Shown here: positions 46,430 through 51,833 of the stretch, one piece after another
Position numbering within the stretch: the first letter of the stretch is position 1
Layout: each line of letters begins with the position of its first letter
DNA from: Bacillota bacterium
GTDB lineage: Bacteria > Bacillota > Sulfobacillia > Fermentithermobacillales > Fermentithermobacillaceae
Assembly: GCA_040880305.1 (NCBI GenBank)
Contig: JBBDIP010000044.1
Location: 15,914 to 79,913, forward strand
DNA: 64,000 nucleotides
Reading direction: 5' to 3'
Notes under the pieces: model-generated
The model's database searches: none
What the model was told of the DNA's origin: nothing
The model's input: the letters and a program-made list of their open reading frames with translations, nothing else
Made by a program: the position numbers and the translations under genes

Positions 46430-48328
46430 TTGATGCCCGGACGATTCGTTAATCTCATAATGGACGTTCCCGCCCTAATGGACCGGCAGTTCACTTACGA
46501 ACTGCCGGGTTTGGTCATTCTCCCAAAGGGCGCCAAGGTCAGAGTGCCGTTTGGACGGGGCGAGGCCGACGGTTTTGTGGTAGGGGAGAGCCCCCCGCCG
46601 CCCGGCATCGCGATCAAGAGCGTCAAGGCGGTATATGACCTGGAGTTCCTGCCTGGACCTCACCTACAGCGACTCGCCGCGCGTCTCAGCGACTACTACT
46701 GCGCCCCGCTTTCGGCCGCGCTATCTTGCCTATGGCCGCCGGTGGTCCCCAAACGCAAACCGGAGGAGGCCCTCCCGGCGCCTGTGGGCGCTGACTTGGG
46801 AACGCCGCAGCAGCGCGGCGAAGCGATTCTGGTTAGCGGAGACCGGGAATATCGGTGGACTCAGTACCTGGAGCGGTTGCGTCAGGTCAGGGCGCAGGGC
46901 CGGGGCGCCATATTCCTTGTCCCGGAGATCAAGGGGGTCGGAGAAGCCTTCGGCCGGCTGGATGCAGCGCTTCCGGGGGAAGTCTCGTGCCTCCACTCCG
47001 AACTCACGGGCGTCACCAGGAGGGGCGCGTACCTCTCCCTCTGCAGGGATGAGAAGACTGTCGCGCTTGGGACCAGGGCGGCGATCTTCGCGCCGGTGAA
47101 CCGCCTCGGCGTCATCGTTGTGGACGACGAGGCCTCCGAATCCTACAAGTCCCCCGACCTTCCTTTCTACGATTCGCGCACCGTCGCTCTCCTGCGGAGT
47201 CGCATTGACGGGTGCGACGTCATGCTTGGGTCATCGCACCCGACCGTGGAGTCCGTGTGGCGCGCGTCAAGCGGCGATCTGAGATCGCGCAAGCAGGAGT
47301 CGACAGAGTTCGGCCCGCCTTCAACTTTGGTAAACCTAAGGGAGACCAGGCGGGGCAAGGACATCATGGCCCCCGCCCTGATCTGCAGTCTCCAAGAGAC
47401 GTTCGCTGCGGGAAACAGGGCCATCCTGTTCCTTAACAGGCGCGGCGAGTCAACCCAGGTGACCTGTCGGGACTGCGGCAGCACCCTTACGTGCAAACGA
47501 TGCGGGGTCCCGCTGGCCTACCATGCCAAGGAGCTAGCGCTGGTATGTCACACTTGCGGGAGGCGGCAAGAGGCTCCCGAAACATGTCCGAACTGCGGTG
47601 GACGTTCCTGGCGTTTCGCGCGGTTCGGCATCGAGCGCGCCTACTCCGAGTTCACGCGCCTCTTTCCAGGCGTCCCTTTGTTTCGGATGGACAAGGACGC
47701 GGCCAAAGAGGAAAGCGCAGTGAAAGTCTTGGCCGGCTTCTCCGCCGGCGCGCCTGCATGCCTCCTGGCCACCCGCATGGTCCTGGGCTTCACGGGGATC
47801 CCCCGGGTGGGCGCAGTAGGGGTGCTGTCGTGCGACACTCTTTTGAACCTGCCTGACTACAGGGCGGCGGAAAAGGTCTTCCACCTGCTTTGGTCGCTTA
47901 GGGAATTGGTGGACCCCCATCTGCCTTCGGCGGCTTTCGTGGCTCAGACCTATAACCCTGAGAACCACGGGGTGAGGGGGGTTCTGGATCCGGAGGCGTT
48001 CTACCACACCGAGTTGGAGAACCGGCGCCTCCTAGGGTACCCTCCATTCAAGCGGTTCTTCAAAGTCCACCTGCACGGCAGGAACCCTGATAGAGTGCGC
48101 GAGGCGGCCGCCGCTTTCGCCGCCGCTGCCTTGGAGGGGGCCGGTGACATTGACGTCCTGGGGCCGAGTCCGGCTCCAAAGCCGAAAGTGCGCTTGGAAT
48201 ACCGGTGGCAGGTAGGGCTGCGCGGCGCCGACGCCTCTGCCATGGCTTCTCTCCAAAGGCGCGCTGCGGCTTCTGTGGGCGGCGGCGTCAAGGTGTCGGT
48301 CGACGTGGACCCGGTTGACATGGCTTAA
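46430..48328 (+). CDS. priA: Primosomal protein N' (PriA) homologue with degenerate helicase ATPase motifs
   Basis: It has a 3'-DNA-binding-domain-like N-terminus and a Cys4 zinc region (CRDCGSTLTCKRCGVPLAYHAKELALVCHTCG...CPNCGG). Walker A GxGKT is absent (ILVSGDREYRW) and motif II is DDEA (VVDDEASESYK) instead of DEEH. Confidence 0.8.
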   Translation: MMPGRFVNLIMDVPALMDRQFTYELPGLVILPKGAKVRVPFGRGEADGFVVGESPPPPGIAIKSVKAVYDLEFLPGPHLQRLAARLSDYYCAPLSAALSCLWPPVVPKRKPEEALPAPVGADLGTPQQRGEAILVSGDREYRWTQYLERLRQVRAQGRGAIFLVPEIKGVGEAFGRLDAALPGEVSCLHSELTGVTRRGAYLSLCRDEKTVALGTRAAIFAPVNRLGVIVVDDEASESYKSPDLPFYDSRTVALLRSRIDGCDVMLGSSHPTVESVWRASSGDLRSRKQESTEFGPPSTLVNLRETRRGKDIMAPALICSLQETFAAGNRAILFLNRRGESTQVTCRDCGSTLTCKRCGVPLAYHAKELALVCHTCGRRQEAPETCPNCGGRSWRFARFGIERAYSEFTRLFPGVPLFRMDKDAAKEESAVKVLAGFSAGAPACLLATRMVLGFTGIPRVGAVGVLSCDTLLNLPDYRAAEKVFHLLWSLRELVDPHLPSAAFVAQTYNPENHGVRGVLDPEAFYHTELENRRLLGYPPFKRFFKVHLHGRNPDRVREAAAAFAAAALEGAGDIDVLGPSPAPKPKVRLEYRWQVGLRGADASAMASLQRRAAASVGGGVKVSVDVDPVDMA

Positions 48329-48357
48329 GCCTACAAGTACCGTACCCATGAAGGGTG

Positions 48358-49803
48358 ATGCCATTGGCCGTTCTCGACATCCTGACTTTCGAAGACCCGG
48401 TGCTTAGAAAAAAGGCCAAGCCGGTGCCTCGCGTCAACGCGACAGTCCGGAAGACCTTGGACGATATGCTCATGACCATGCGATCGGCCTCGGGCGTTGG
48501 CTTGGCTGCTCCGCAGATAGGCGTGTCCAAGCGTATGGTGGTCGTCGACGTGGGCGAGGGCCCGCATTTTTTGGTGAATCCCGAGATTGTGTCGCGGTCC
48601 GACGAGACCGAGGCCACGTGGGAAGGCTGTCTCAGCTGGCCGGGGTACATCGGGGAAGTGACCCGGCCGCTCCGCGTCACCGTCAAGGCGCTGGATAGAG
48701 ACGGGCACGACGTGTGGGTCGAGGGAGAGGAGTTCTTCGCGAGAGCGCTTTGCCACGAAATTGACCACCTGGACGGCGTGTTATTCATAGACCGAGCAGG
48801 CACCATAGCCGAGGTCCCCAAGGATGAAGAGCCATCCGAGGTGGCGTCGTTGGAGGAGCCGCAGGTCAGCGCCGTGTTCATGGGTAGCCCGGCTTTCGCG
48901 GTGCCCAGTCTTGACGAGATGGTACATGCGGGGATCAAGGTCAAGCTTGTCATTACGCAGCCAGACAGGCCTTCTGGCCGTAGGCAGGTGAAATCACCGA
49001 CGAGTGTGAGAGAACGCGCCGAGAGCCTTGGGCTGCCGGTGCTGGCTTGCGAAGACGTCGCCGCGCCCGAGGTCGTTCAGGCCGTCCTCGACGTGGACCC
49101 CGATTTCGTCGTTGTGGCGGCGTTCGGACAACGGCTGCCGCAGGAGATACTAAGGGCCCCCAAGCAGGCGTGCCTCAATGTGCACCCGTCGTTGCTTCCG
49201 CTGTACCGGGGCGGGAATCCGGTACAACGCGCGGTCATGAATGGGGATTCGACGAGCGGCGTATCAATCATCTACATGAGCCATAGAATGGACGCCGGAG
49301 ACATCGCGGTCCAAAAGGCCCTGGAAGTAGGTCCCCACGAGACGTACGGGACCCTGGAGAGCCGGCTAGCCAGTCTCGGCGCCCATGCGCTGGTCGAGAC
49401 CATCATGCTTGTGAGGGCTGGGGCGGCCGGCAGGACGTCCCAGGATGAGTCGCGGGCGACCAGAGCTCCTCACCTGCGACCGGGTGAGGAAGTGATCGAC
49501 TGGACAGGCCCAGCGCGGACGATCCACAACTTGGTGAGAGGGCTTTCCCCAAGGCCTGGAGCGGTGACCTGGTTTGACGGGCAACGTATTAAGGTGTGGG
49601 AAACAAGGCTTTTGCCAGGGGAAAACGCCTTCGGGACCAAGAGCGGTGTCGTTCTTCGGACGGAAGGGGACATGGTAGTCGTCGCCACTGGCGACGGAGC
49701 CATAGGAGTCCTCGAAGTCCAACCCGACGGCAGGAAGCCGATGACGGCTCTGTCCTTCCTCGCGGGAAGGCAGGAGGCTCCAAGACAGTTCGGGCGGATC
49801 TAA
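48358..49803 (+). CDS. Fused peptide deformylase - methionyl-tRNA formyltransferase (Def-Fmt) single polypeptide
   Basis: Residues 1-~165 carry the Def motifs (GVGLAAPQIG, EGCLSWPG, HEIDHLDGVLF). An acidic linker (AEVPKDEEPSEVASLEEPQVS) follows. Residues ~185-482 are Fmt (VFMGSPAFAVPSL..., with the C-terminal domain). No stop separates them. An AAGGG RBS precedes the ATG. Confidence 0.8.
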   Translation: MPLAVLDILTFEDPVLRKKAKPVPRVNATVRKTLDDMLMTMRSASGVGLAAPQIGVSKRMVVVDVGEGPHFLVNPEIVSRSDETEATWEGCLSWPGYIGEVTRPLRVTVKALDRDGHDVWVEGEEFFARALCHEIDHLDGVLFIDRAGTIAEVPKDEEPSEVASLEEPQVSAVFMGSPAFAVPSLDEMVHAGIKVKLVITQPDRPSGRRQVKSPTSVRERAESLGLPVLACEDVAAPEVVQAVLDVDPDFVVVAAFGQRLPQEILRAPKQACLNVHPSLLPLYRGGNPVQRAVMNGDSTSGVSIIYMSHRMDAGDIAVQKALEVGPHETYGTLESRLASLGAHALVETIMLVRAGAAGRTSQDESRATRAPHLRPGEEVIDWTGPARTIHNLVRGLSPRPGAVTWFDGQRIKVWETRLLPGENAFGTKSGVVLRTEGDMVVVATGDGAIGVLEVQPDGRKPMTALSFLAGRQEAPRQFGRI

Positions 49804-49817
49804 GGGAGGGAAGAGTG

Positions 49818-50501
49818 ATGTTCCTTTTCGACAGCGGTTACTTCCTCTTCGTGTTCCCGGCTCTCATTTTTGCCATGTGGGCTCAGGGAAGGGTAAGGTC
49901 AGCATACCAGACTTATTCGAGGCTCCAGGCGCAGAGCGGCAAGGCGGCCTACGAGGTAGCCGCCAGCCTGCTCAGGGATGCCGGATTGGGCGATGTGCGC
50001 ATTGAGAAGGTCGAGGGCCAGCTTAGCGACCACTATGACCCTCGCAACAGGACTTTGTCGTTGTCACAAGCGACCTATGGCAGCCCGTCGGTTGCGGCGG
50101 TGGCGGTGGCGGCCCACGAGGTCGGTCACGCGGTGCAGCACTCTGTGGGATACGCGCCCCTGGCGATTCGGAACGGCCTGGTTCCGGTGGCCAATATCGG
50201 GTCCAACATGGCCATCCCTCTGTTCTTCATGGGGCTCATCTTCTCTTCGGGTTTCCTCATGGACCTTGGACTGCTCTTCTTCCTGGCTGCGGTCATCTTC
50301 CAGGTGGTTACGCTGCCTGTCGAGTACAACGCCTCCAAGCGCGCCATGGATATGCTGGAAGTCTCGGGCTTCGTTGCCCCTAATGAGATGGTTCCTGTGG
50401 GCAACATGCTAAACGCCGCCGCGCTGACCTACGTCGCGGCGACCGCTGTGGCTCTTGCCCAGTTCCTGCGACTCCTAGCGCTTCGCGGGAGGCGCCGCTA
50501 G
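49818..50501 (+). CDS. Putative neutral zinc metallopeptidase (YpfJ/Zn_peptidase_2 family), membrane-anchored
   Basis: HEVGHAVQH is the HExxH motif. It has N-terminal and C-terminal TM helices. An AGGGAGGGAAG RBS is present. Confidence 0.75.
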   Translation: MFLFDSGYFLFVFPALIFAMWAQGRVRSAYQTYSRLQAQSGKAAYEVAASLLRDAGLGDVRIEKVEGQLSDHYDPRNRTLSLSQATYGSPSVAAVAVAAHEVGHAVQHSVGYAPLAIRNGLVPVANIGSNMAIPLFFMGLIFSSGFLMDLGLLFFLAAVIFQVVTLPVEYNASKRAMDMLEVSGFVAPNEMVPVGNMLNAAALTYVAATAVALAQFLRLLALRGRRR

Positions 50502-51833
50502 TTGCATTCGGGACCCCGGGAGGTAGCCATCCGCATCCTTTGTGAGACGGGCGACACCTCCCGGGCTTCGTATTTTGAGGGGTTGGACGATCCTCGCGAC
50601 CGGGCCCTGGCCAAGGAACTGGCCAGCGGCACGCTGCAATGGCGGGGTCTTGTCGACTACCACCTGGCCCGCTTTTCCGATCGGACGCTTGGGTCTCTTC
50701 GGCCGCGCCTCCTAAGCGCTCTGCGTGTGGGCGTATTTCAACTGCTGTTCACGGGAGTGCCTCAGTACGCTGCGGTGAACTCGGTGGTGGAATCCCTGCG
50801 GCACGGCGGCGAGCGGTCGTTCGCAAACGGTGTGCTCCGCTCTGTCGCGCGTAGCGCCGGGCACCTGGATCTGCCGTCAGTTGACGCTGAGCCACTCAAG
50901 TACATAGCAACCCGATTCTCGCATCCTGAGTGGATCGCGAAAGCGTACCTGCGTCGATTCGGGCTTTCGGATTCCTTGCGCCTCGCGTCACACAACAACC
51001 GTCCTCCGCCGCTGGTCCTGCGCGTAAATCTGCTCAGGGCCACGCGCGAGGACTACCTGCGGCTCCTTCGCGCCAAGGGGTACCGCGCCGAGGAATCTCT
51101 CACCCCCGCGGGCGTCCGGGTGATGGACGGCGCCGACGTCACCTCTCTGCCCGGTTTTCGGGACGGCCTGTTTGTAGTGCAAGACGAGGGGGCCGGGGCG
51201 ATCTCGGCTGCAGTGGGAGTTCAGGCGGGCGAGAGGGTGTGGGACGTCTGCGCGGCACCGGGCGGGAAGACCACGCATATGGCCGAAATGATGGGCGGCA
51301 CCGGGGAAGTGCTGGCGACTGACATCGACCCGGCGCGAGTGGACATGGTCCGGGAGACGGCGAGCAGGCTGGGTCTTCGGAACGTCACTGCCGCGGTCAT
51401 GGACGCGACCGGCGACGGACCCAAGGAGCCAGGGACTTTGTTCGACCGGATACTGCTTGACGCGCCCTGCTCCGGCCTGGGGGTTTTGCGCCGGCGCGCC
51501 GATCTTCGTTGGAATCGCAGGGAGTCGGACGTAGAGAAGATGGCTGCCCGGCAATCCGCTATGCTGGACTCCGTCGCGCCCCGCCTTCGTCCAGGCGGCA
51601 CGCTGGTCTACAGCACATGTACCCTCACCTCGGAAGAGAACGAGTGCGTGTGGAAAGACTTCCTGCGAAAGCACCCCGAGTTCTTGGTTCTTGACCCAAG
51701 GGAGGGAGCCGCCTGCGAGTATCGCCGCCTCTACGCCGGCGAGCGGTTCGCGGGGCCGGGGTATCGTTACATTTTGCCACAAGACTGGGACACAGACGGC
51801 TTTTTTGTAGCGCGCGCCGTCAAAAGGGGTTGA
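50502..51833 (+). CDS. rsmB: 16S rRNA (cytosine967-C5)-methyltransferase with N-terminal NusB-like domain
   Basis: SAM motif VWDVCAAPGGKT and the catalytic DAPCSGLGV region. It is in the conserved position after fmt. Confidence 0.85.
   Translation: MHSGPREVAIRILCETGDTSRASYFEGLDDPRDRALAKELASGTLQWRGLVDYHLARFSDRTLGSLRPRLLSALRVGVFQLLFTGVPQYAAVNSVVESLRHGGERSFANGVLRSVARSAGHLDLPSVDAEPLKYIATRFSHPEWIAKAYLRRFGLSDSLRLASHNNRPPPLVLRVNLLRATREDYLRLLRAKGYRAEESLTPAGVRVMDGADVTSLPGFRDGLFVVQDEGAGAISAAVGVQAGERVWDVCAAPGGKTTHMAEMMGGTGEVLATDIDPARVDMVRETASRLGLRNVTAAVMDATGDGPKEPGTLFDRILLDAPCSGLGVLRRRADLRWNRRESDVEKMAARQSAMLDSVAPRLRPGGTLVYSTCTLTSEENECVWKDFLRKHPEFLVLDPREGAACEYRRLYAGERFAGPGYRYILPQDWDTDGFFVARAVKRG

Follow-up and report, generated by a model that had tools for sequence, protein, structure and literature searches.

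The def-fmt locus

The window (the whole 64-kb stretch of DNA that was analysed) carries on its plus strand a single open reading frame encoding peptide deformylase (Def) followed by methionyl-tRNA formyltransferase (Fmt). The earlier note had described a 482-aa ORF from 48358; the ORF itself stands, but in the ORF listing (48355..49803) the 482 residues are counted from GTG 48355, and ATG 48358 is the second codon. Both codons are in-frame alternatives to TTG 48364, the probable translation start, which was chosen by gene callers in three other assemblies (L086-L088; 479 aa) and agrees with the SD-like GAAGGG and its 8-nt spacing. The mass computed for the 479-aa form matches the product of ~52 kDa that had been predicted. 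The genes are arranged in the classic order priA-def-fmt-rsmB. A tblastn search found no second def or fmt within the 64-kb window, and an Rfam scan of the window gave zero matches.

Table 1. Features of the def-fmt locus, in window coordinates.
Feature	Position (nt)	Strand	Remarks
priA, upstream gene	46430..48328	+	same operon-like cluster
SD-like GAAGGG	48350..48355	+	8 nt upstream of TTG 48364; read from sequence
def-fmt fused coding sequence	48364..49803	+	probable start TTG 48364; 479 aa; 51.8 kDa
Peptide deformylase domain (aa 4-153)	48364..48813	+	Pfam, NCBIfam, AF2 model
PDF motif I GVGLAAPQ (aa 47-54)	48493..48516	+	G47, G49, L50, A51, Q54 invariant (54 fused proteins)
PDF motif II EGCLS (aa 90-94)	48622..48636	+	metal ligand Cys92; E90, C92, L93, S94 invariant (54 fused proteins)
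PDF motif III C-HEIDH (aa 133-138)	48751..48768	+	H134, E135, D137, H138 invariant (54 fused proteins)
Acidic disordered connector VPKDEEPSEVASLEEPQV (aa 154-171)	48814..48867	+	net charge -5; AF2 model
Fmt N-terminal formyltransferase (Rossmann-type) domain (aa 172-353)	48868..49413	+	PF00551, 1fmt mapping
tRNA-recognition loop TQPDRPSGRRQV (aa 201-212), in Fmt N-terminal domain			R209 = E. coli R42
N275-V-H277-PSLLPLYRG, in Fmt N-terminal domain	49177-49212
D313, in Fmt N-terminal domain	49291-49293
Fmt C-terminal tRNA-binding domain (aa 375-472)	49477..49770	+	PF02911 1.2e-24; model pLDDT about 95
Stop codon TAA of def-fmt ORF	49801-49803	+
Zn_peptidase_2, downstream of def-fmt	49818-50501	+
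rsmB, downstream of Zn_peptidase_2	50502-51833	+

The two halves and the connector

The N-terminal half is recognised as a peptide deformylase (PDF) by PF01327 (aa 7-148, 5.5e-50, 169.4 bits against a cutoff of 22.8) and passes the TIGR00079 pept_deformyl equivalog (147 bits; cutoff 103.95). All three metal-binding motifs are present, as had been claimed, with GVGLAAPQ at 47, EGCLS at 90 and HEIDH at 134; in the last, H134 and H138 are metal ligands and E135 is the catalytic residue. Cys133 stands in for the usual Gln before HExxH, and Cys occupies this position in 34 of 108 fused homologues. The Def core shares 43% identity with E. coli PDF (BLASTP), the alignment stopping at D146/D144. In the AF2 model the Def half has pLDDT values of 94-98; its last elements are a short helix (144-147) and a β-strand (150-153), followed by disorder.

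In the E. coli-type PDF, a basic α-helix at the C-terminus mediates docking on uL22/uL32 and 23S rRNA. This helix of the type 1B enzymes is absent from the Def half, both by BLASTP and in the AF2 model, and the tail is acidic instead. The residues by which E. coli PDF contacts the ribosome, K150, R153, K157, K160 and R163 (PMC12690207), correspond here, in register from HExxH, to A, P, E, E and S.

The C-terminal half was matched in its N-terminal domain by PF00551 (Formyl_trans_N, aa 174-350, 7.4e-38) and in its C-terminal domain by PF02911, and passes the TIGR00460 fmt equivalog (262.7 bits; cutoff 201.5), in agreement with the earlier description of a complete Fmt. Mapping onto 1fmt aligns N275, H277, D313 and R209 with Asn108, His110, Asp146 and Arg42 of E. 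coli Fmt; neither these four residues nor SLLPxxRG vary among 54 diverse fused proteins. Foldseek placed the Fmt half on solved Fmt structures with TM scores of 0.94 (4iqf) and 0.92 (2fmt). The AF2 model of the whole fusion shows both halves well folded (mean pLDDT 94.3); since its pTM is only 0.70 and residues 154-171 are unstructured, it defines neither how the two halves are oriented to each other nor an inter-domain interface.

The acidic linker of 20 aa noted previously was accurately described: the alignment gives a connector of 26 aa (148-173, net charge -6), the model one of 18 aa (154-171, net -5). It is devoid of secondary structure in the model, with pLDDT <50 at residues 158-165. 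It also contains the DNA motif GGAGGAG (48851-48857), which arises from its Leu-Glu-Glu (GAG-GAG) codons. Connectors of the window's clade are consistently acidic (mean net charge -6.2) and poorly conserved in sequence; within the clade, Def is 73% identical, the two Fmt domains are 63% and 53% identical, and the connector 35%. Taking all fused lineages together, connector length varies between 6 and 75 aa, and the connectors of different lineages are unrelated to one another. The free Def of unfused relatives already has an acidic C-terminal tail without the docking helix, as in L006, the closest unfused relative, where Def ends in AERIYEVTPEASEEE, resembling AGTIAEVPKDEEPSEV of the window protein.

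Reality of the junction

Three assemblies obtained independently from the same species (two from ENA, one from Logan) are identical at 1442 of 1449 nt, with zero indels and the same junction. The stop codon or frameshift that, according to the earlier note, would restore two separate genes occurs in none of them, and its central observation, def and fmt complete and in one frame, is borne out by the Pfam and NCBIfam matches on either side of an uninterrupted junction. A database search for Def-Fmt fusions in related taxa, also proposed there, returned fused proteins of at least 400 aa for 107 of the best 120 matches (clusters at 90% identity), and these 107 clusters span 99% to 40% identity. 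Coincidence is therefore not a concern. The 107 clusters include the finished genome of Thermaerobacter marianensis DSM 12885 and an independent read assembly of the same. Fused genes are almost always annotated solely as 'methionyl-tRNA formyltransferase', which can cause the deformylase to be overlooked in genome surveys; some fused copies are labelled 'Multifunctional fusion protein' in UniRef.

Recurrence and origin of the fusion

At least 29 of the 150 best-scoring cluster representatives at 50% identity are fused. A contig scan with a single protein as query yielded 5 loci only, which leaves the taxonomic census thin. The arrangement had been called unusual. This holds in that it is rare across bacteria overall, yet it is recurrent, present in public databases and already published for Exiguobacterium.

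In the Fmt neighbour-joining (NJ) tree, the window's clade, consisting of uncultured Bacillota near Ca. Fermentithermobacillaceae, has 100% bootstrap. The fused clade of Exiguobacterium also has 100% and is nested with nine unfused Fmt of Bacilli at 97%. Bootstraps indicate that Exiguobacterium, P0135 and P0148 each have an origin of their own, and the Def tree agrees with a separate origin of the window's clade and the Exiguobacterium fusion; the node relating the window's clade to the Thermaerobacter types has <50% in the NJ trees. Judged by the trees shown here, the window's fusion arose apart from that of Exiguobacterium, and at least three further fused lineages appear besides these two. 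The bootstrapped trees support a recurrent, polyphyletic Def-Fmt fusion with at least four to five separate origins. One origin for all fused proteins was not supported, unfused Fmt being interleaved with deep fused groups in the first NJ tree.

The spacing of the separate genes bears on how such fusions form. Across 43 unfused loci, def and fmt overlap in 12 and are separated by 0-10 nt in another 17, with junctions such as TAG-GTG, TAA-ATG and ATGA, in which the def stop abuts or overlaps the fmt start. Since the two codons touch or overlap in about two thirds of the sampled unfused loci, one mutation suffices to fuse the pair, a statement that applies to the gap-0 and overlap loci. The tight packing of def and fmt accounts for the occurrence of the fusion. 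L006 was considered as a one-substitution precursor and rejected, as its spacer DNA carries a second in-frame stop.

A probable bifunctional protein on a flexible tether

We consider it very probable that the locus encodes a bifunctional protein, with an active Def and an active Fmt joined by a flexible acidic connector, as an independent instance of a known fusion type. The product would be one polypeptide and, judging from the invariant active sites, both activities would be exerted in vivo, most likely by two halves that behave as independent enzymes on a flexible tether. In an ancestor of this uncultured Bacillota clade, def and fmt may have been tightly packed and co-transcribed; upon loss of the stop codon or spacer between them, the acidic C-terminal tail of Def would have read into the N-terminus of Fmt. 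The Fmt half would then formylate Met-tRNAfMet in the cytosol and the Def half would strip the formyl group off nascent chains. The chief consequence of the fusion would be obligatory 1:1 co-expression and genetic linkage, and we infer that its benefit lies there. A truncating def mutation would take out fmt as well, and the double loss is the combination that is tolerated. The fusion could also be selectively neutral.

The earlier note had seen in the fusion implications for cotranslational processing, and it is conceivable, though unlikely, that the tether was selected to co-locate Fmt and Def at the ribosome or to recruit Def anew. The basic helix with which E. coli PDF docks is missing from the Def half, so that some other mode of recruitment must exist, and the connector of the window's clade has stayed acidic despite its poor sequence conservation. 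Against this, the free Def of unfused relatives shares the acidic, helix-less tail, which makes that feature older than the fusion and independent of it. Connectors that are unrelated across fused lineages, and a model that gives no inter-domain interface and a disordered linker, also speak against coupling. Moreover, the substrates of the two enzymes are apart in time and space: Fmt acts on Met-tRNAfMet before initiation and Def on the nascent chain at the exit tunnel; formylation and deformylation are parted by initiation and by elongation over about 40-50 residues. The proposed coupling finds no support, given a connector that is disordered, 35% identical and variable in length (6-75 aa), a fusion that arose several times from pairs one mutation away, and a Def half without the docking helix.

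A related and similarly improbable proposal is that, with a helix-less Def that is the housekeeping and possibly the only one, and that is permanently joined to Fmt by the consistently acidic disordered linker, the fusion is more than a neutral read-through. Alternative ribosome recruitment, for example via the RNA-binding C-terminal domain of Fmt, and a selected genetic fail-safe that keeps Fmt from being made in the absence of Def, are two possible forms of it. On this reading, Def-Fmt fusions seem to be confined in origin to lineages with a free Def that is without the basic helix, a pattern that would then point to a second and uncharacterised way for PDF to interact with the ribosome.

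That the ORF yields two proteins, with free Fmt produced from an internal start (an ancestral relic) or by proteolytic cleavage in the linker, is distinctly unlikely. GGAGGAG is followed by an in-frame GTG (48873) and ATG (48879) near the Fmt N-terminus, and 6 nt past GGAGGAG comes the codon that is homologous to the start of the ancestral fmt. Some other fused lineages retain Met codons there (P0135: ...AKMMKIVFMGTP), and some Exiguobacterium records annotate just a 306-aa Fmt (P0132). In the window, however, this homologous position is taken by GTC, not a start codon, and in Thermaerobacter by CTG; the nearest real start, GTG 48873, sits 15 nt from the SD-like motif. The motif itself is absent or shifted in L001, L002, L003 and L089 and is explained by the glutamate codons, and with its wrong spacing to real starts it was rejected as a conserved internal ribosome-binding site.

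Degeneration of one half, for instance an accessory or inactive Def beside a separate housekeeping PDF, we regard as very unlikely. The second PDF encoded by all fusion-bearing Exiguobacterium genomes (PMC12690207) and the Cys in place of Gln in motif III could be read in this way. Cys, Leu or Ala is, however, common at position 133 in the family, the metal-binding and catalytic residues are invariant throughout, and Def is the most conserved segment of the protein. The gene also occupies the canonical housekeeping slot priA-def-fmt-rsmB, and the Exiguobacterium fusion provides deformylase activity in E. coli (PMC12690207).

A sequencing or assembly artefact, in which a lost stop or a frameshift error joined two genes, has next to no probability; nothing was found in its favour, and it is effectively refuted by the identical junction in three independent assemblies, by more than 100 fused homologue clusters that include finished isolate genomes, and by the reading frame and motifs conserved on either side of the junction.

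The Def-Fmt fusion is confirmed as genuine and as an independent example of an arrangement already known as a kind, but its importance is limited. How a helix-less fused PDF reaches nascent chains is relevant to models of how factors compete at the ribosome exit, and to PDF inhibitors.

Comparison with known systems

Relative to separate def and fmt genes (the E. coli operon and the unfused loci L005, L006, L013 and L045), the window has the same enzymes, gene order and neighbours; it differs in the absence of the intergenic stop and in a Def half without the type 1B basic helix. The arrangement resembles a 'Rosetta-stone' fusion, in which operon-adjacent, translationally coupled proteins of one pathway have, in some lineages, merged into a single polypeptide. 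Such fusions are usually rationalised by substrate channelling, which does not apply here because the reactions of Def and Fmt are not successive steps acting on a diffusible intermediate, and we infer that none takes place between the two halves.

Thermaerobacter-type fusions, represented by P0086 (T. marianensis DSM 12885) and P0095 (T. subterraneus) and carrying the UniRef name 'Multifunctional fusion protein', share with the window the protein architecture and the synteny gmk-rpoZ-priA-def/fmt-Zn_peptidase_2-rsmB-rlmN-PP2C-PASTA kinase, and their connector begins in the same way, with A-x-x-[IV]-x-E-[VIL]-P. They are nevertheless only 40-48% identical to the window protein, and their near-neutral connector (ARKVVELPPESDLRV) is reduced to a minimal 15 aa. 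In the fused protein of T. marianensis DSM 12885 the stretch spanning the connector includes RKVVELPPESDLRVVFMGTP. A literature search combining Thermaerobacter, deformylase and formyltransferase found no paper. Cultured Thermaerobacter strains offer a natural system for studying how a PDF without the uL22-docking helix, bearing a 34-kDa C-terminal passenger, reaches nascent chains.

Exiguobacterium's fused def-fmt gene, represented here by the metagenome locus L021 and by P0121-P0131, was reported in 2025 in Mol Biol Evol (PMC12690207). There the fusion of Exiguobacterium alkaliphilum fully rescues E. coli delta-def-fmt, and every Exiguobacterium genome with the fusion also encodes a second PDF (PMC12690207). 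As in the window, Def precedes Fmt in one ORF with both motif sets intact, in the housekeeping def-fmt position. The two proteins are 39% identical over their full length, and their connectors are unrelated, being 8-16 aa and near neutral (KLVEQEKPR) in Exiguobacterium but 18-26 aa and strongly acidic in the window protein. The window's clade comprises 58 clusters, reaching down to about 54% identity, and is far larger and older than the fused clade of Exiguobacterium.

A fused def-fmt gene with intact active sites

The window holds an uninterrupted reading frame joining peptide deformylase (Def, PDF) to methionyl-tRNA formyltransferase (Fmt). The ATG at 48358, taken as the start in the earlier note, is its second codon, and gene callers in three other assemblies of the same species begin at TTG 48364, giving a product of 479 aa and 51.8 kDa. 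The protein scores above the curated cutoffs of both NCBIfam equivalog models (fmt and peptide deformylase) and contains all three PDF motifs, GVGLAAPQ, EGCLS and HEIDH. Alignment to 1fmt places N275, H277 and D313 at the catalytic N108, H110 and D146 of E. coli Fmt, and R209 at the tRNA-recognition residue R42. The intact ORF, the Pfam and NCBIfam matches and these motifs bear out the in-frame fusion of two complete halves described from the sequence alone. PDF motif III reads C-HEIDH (Cys133, 48751-48753) versus the usual Q-HExDH; at the equivalent position 108 fused homologues have Gln (59), Cys (34), Leu (10) or Ala (3), and the frequency of Cys shows this to be real lineage variation rather than error.

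Coordinates of the fused gene, its domains and associated genes
Feature	Position	Strand	Details
def-fmt ORF	48355..49803	+	uninterrupted; 482 aa from GTG 48355
SD-like GAAGGG	48350-48355	+	8-nt spacing to TTG 48364, fits that start
Pep_deformylase	aa 7-148 of fused protein		Pfam, 5.5e-50
Formyl_trans_N	aa 174-350 of fused protein		Pfam, 7.4e-38
Formyl_trans_C	aa 375-472 of fused protein		Pfam, 1.2e-24
priA	46430-48328		just upstream of def-fmt; PriA 632 aa, short
Zn_peptidase_2 (PF04298)	49818-50501		immediately after fmt
Zn_peptidase_2 (PF04298), locus L089	6814-7497
Zn_peptidase_2 (PF04298), locus L005	8017-8871
Fused gene, locus L040	663-2003		GC 37%

P0001, a protein 99% identical to that of the window, is found in three independent assemblies (two of ENA metagenomes, the third from Logan for a separate run), in which the gene matches at 1442 of 1449 bases with zero indels and the junction differs by one Ala/Thr substitution. 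The database search for fusions in relatives, proposed earlier as a check, returned many: fused proteins of at least 400 aa make up 107 of the 120 best matches (90%-identity clusters), and the three Pfam domains were found in fused homologues from 99% down to about 40% identity. The closest named relatives (58-63% identity) are MAGs labelled 'Bacillota bacterium' and Ca. Fermentithermobacillaceae. The finished genome of cultured Thermaerobacter marianensis DSM 12885 has the fused ORF, and an independent read assembly of this strain gave the same result. The shared junction, the predominance of fused clusters and the finished genome together reject an assembly artefact.

An alignment of 54 diverse fused proteins shows no variation at any catalytic or metal-binding residue of either enzyme. 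Within the window's clade (58 clusters) mean pairwise identity is highest in Def (73%), with 63% and 53% in the Fmt domains and 35% in the connector. Judged from these alignments, strong purifying selection acts on both active sites.

The gene lies in the usual def-fmt housekeeping neighbourhood, with priA upstream and a Zn_peptidase_2 gene and rsmB downstream. No helicase-core Pfam match was found in the window PriA. Where Thermaerobacter, Exiguobacterium and the unfused Chloroflexia locus L005 have the Walker A motif GVTGSGKTE, the window reads SG-DREYRW and the PriA encoded ahead of def-fmt in L001-L003 reads G-S-x-S-[YF]-RW; the DEEH box is DDEA in the window and DEEE in L001-L003. Since the Walker A replacement is conserved across the clade, this looks like a conserved ATPase-dead PriA, which is more likely than a pseudogene. 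Zn_peptidase_2, a putative membrane-type neutral zinc metallopeptidase, directly follows fmt in the window, in Thermaerobacter and in the Chloroflexia locus, and occupies the fmt-rsmB interval wherever rsmB was identified; its linkage to N-terminal processing genes is conserved. Across the whole window (1-64000; GC 61.3%) Rfam returned zero families at the gathering threshold, with no detectable rRNA, riboswitches or other curated RNAs.

Structure of the fused protein

An AlphaFold2 model built on the alignment of 54 fused proteins has a mean pLDDT of 94.3, with both halves at 95-98 and connector residues 154-171 unstructured (pLDDT <50 at 158-165). With a pTM of only 0.70, the model does not fix how the two halves are oriented to each other. 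Superposition of the Fmt half gives TM 0.94 (1.7 Å) with B. anthracis Fmt and TM 0.92 with the E. coli Fmt-tRNA complex 2fmt; sequence and fold searches alike found no PDB chain covering both enzymes. The acidic linker of about 20 aa noted previously was recovered as 18 aa of net charge -5 in the structural model, or 26 aa of net charge -6 by alignment. Connectors of the clade have a median length of 25 aa, are consistently acidic (mean net charge -6.2) and have sometimes grown to 64-75 aa. Low-complexity connectors of 46-75 aa, rich in acidic residues, Pro, Gly and Ala, were seen in the clade members P0051, P0053, P0056 and P0057 and in P0101 and P0241, indicating that large insertions are tolerated at the junction.

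In the model the Def half terminates in a short helix (144-147) and a beta-strand (150-153). BLASTP gives 43% identity to E. coli PDF through the core, the alignment ending at D146/D144, the exact start of the E. coli C-terminal helix. That helix docks on the ribosome via L149, K150, R153, K157, K160 and R163 (PMC12690207), positions at which the window protein has I, A, P, E, E and S in a simple register from HExxH. The alignment stop and these substitutions show that, in contrast to E. coli PDF, the window Def lacks this docking element. The correlation of fusion with a missing docking helix suggests that the PDF of these Bacillota interacts with the ribosome in an uncharacterised way, a possibility open to test in cultured Thermaerobacter.

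Consequences of the fusion

Two autonomous enzymes on a flexible tether is the best-supported reading, since both active sites are strongly conserved, the connector is disordered and freely evolving, and a shorter connector is compatible with both activities of the Exiguobacterium fusion. The substrate of Fmt is Met-tRNAfMet, before initiation; that of Def is the nascent chain once it has emerged from the exit tunnel. At such different stages the reactions cannot be channelled. We found no supporting evidence for functional coupling at the ribosome, where the earlier note saw implications for cotranslational processing.

A plausible consequence is that fusion would make co-expression and genetic linkage of Def and Fmt obligatory. 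A mutant lacking both genes, delta-def-fmt, is viable, and resistance to PDF inhibitors arises most often through fmt inactivation (PMC12690207). Loss of def is tolerated only if formylation is lost too, and because of this dependence the linkage may matter: a mutation truncating the Def half would take Fmt out with it. We infer a benefit on this basis; the fusion may also be neutral, conferring none. No second PDF lies within the 64-kb window.

That a separate Fmt is also made from an internal start is unlikely. The connector does contain an SD-like GGAGGAG (48851-48857), but this is the product of Leu-Glu-Glu codons, GTC occupies the position homologous to the ancestral fmt start, and SD-like motifs are missing or displaced in L001-L003 and Thermaerobacter; comparison of the window with these revealed no conserved internal start.

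Origin and recurrence of def-fmt fusions

Among 43 unfused def-fmt loci, scored with heuristic start calls, the stop of def and the start of fmt overlap in 12 and lie 0-10 nt apart in 17, and fmt is in frame with def in about half. Raw junctions read CTC TAG GTG (L013) and TAA ATG (L039 and L048), with an ATGA overlap in L045; the Chloroflexia locus has a 1-nt overlap and the same priA-def-fmt-Zn-peptidase synteny as the window. Such abutting or overlapping junctions are the precursor state itself, from which a single substitution or 1-nt indel is enough to put def and fmt into one frame. Free Def tails fall into two classes, an E. coli-type basic helix (net +4 to +9) and a short acidic tail (net -5 to -13), and every fused lineage seen comes from the non-basic class. 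Among unfused loci in the metagenome sample L006 matches best (45% identity), and its Def ends in AERIYEVTPEASEEE before the stop, like the window connector start AGTIAEVPKDEEPSEV. The acidic linker thus consists largely of the Def tail of the ancestor, continued by read-through into the N-terminus of Fmt.

An NJ tree built from 299 columns of the Fmt domain (100 bootstrap replicates, few unfused sequences sampled) recovers the window's clade as monophyletic with 100% support. The fused Exiguobacterium proteins also form a clade at 100%, which nests with nine unfused Fmt of Bacillaceae, Brevibacillus and Turicibacter at 97%, and fused P0135 and P0148 each nest among unfused sequences (75-86%). 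The NJ tree of the Def domain, likewise with few unfused sequences, agrees, placing the window's clade (78%) and Exiguobacterium (100%) far apart. Further fused groups with their own connectors are P0136-139/P0143, P0220 and the low-GC locus L040. Exhaustive profile searching across 1.84 billion cluster representatives gave at least 29 fused clusters among the best 150 (50% identity), with connectors of 6-63 aa. The separate tree positions, distinct connectors and number of fused clusters indicate that Def-Fmt fusion is recurrent and polyphyletic, and by sequence comparison the window's clade is an independent lineage, one of the larger ones. A common fusion event with the Thermaerobacter types, whose 15-aa connector is ARKVVELPPESDLRV, has bootstrap support <50% in the Fmt-domain tree.

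The additional fused lineages (L040, P0135, P0136-P0139, P0143, P0148, P0220 and P0253-P0274) have unrelated connectors, among them LEEIK, VIRYLDQEELKGGEAKMMK, VEEYITFEELNQLQIKDTR and VEPFSV. P0135 retains two Met codons at the former fmt start, and one group of 440-466-aa proteins has only a partial profile match in the C-terminal Fmt domain.

Public annotation is inconsistent. UniRef names some fused proteins 'Multifunctional fusion protein'; NCBI and JGI give just 'methionyl-tRNA formyltransferase', nearly always the only name, and product-name surveys would miss the deformylase or the fusion. Some Exiguobacterium records (P0132, P0134, P0140-P0142) are 306-aa Fmt proteins sharing 98% identity with the Fmt half of the fused family P0121-P0131, which suggests an annotated internal start.

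Comparison with the Exiguobacterium fusion

A 2025 paper in Mol Biol Evol (PMC12690207), covering 5,042 reference genomes, found def and fmt co-localised in only 58% of species and reported fusion only from Exiguobacterium, 'an unusual case' in its four reference genomes, all with a second PDF. The metagenome locus L021 (GC 49%), which is Exiguobacterium (98% identity to E. acetylicum), led to the Exiguobacterium family P0121-P0131. The arrangement, which had been called unusual, is thus published in Exiguobacterium, recurrent in databases and polyphyletic; the architecture is already known and experimentally validated as a kind, and the window fusion is not novel in kind. The window and Exiguobacterium fused proteins share 39% identity, and their connectors are unrelated, AGTIAEVPKDEEPSEVASLEEPQVSA in the window as against KLVEQEKPR, 8-16 aa and near neutral, in Exiguobacterium; the published experiment on the Exiguobacterium fusion, done in E. 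coli delta-def-fmt, showed a connector shorter than the window's to be compatible with both activities.
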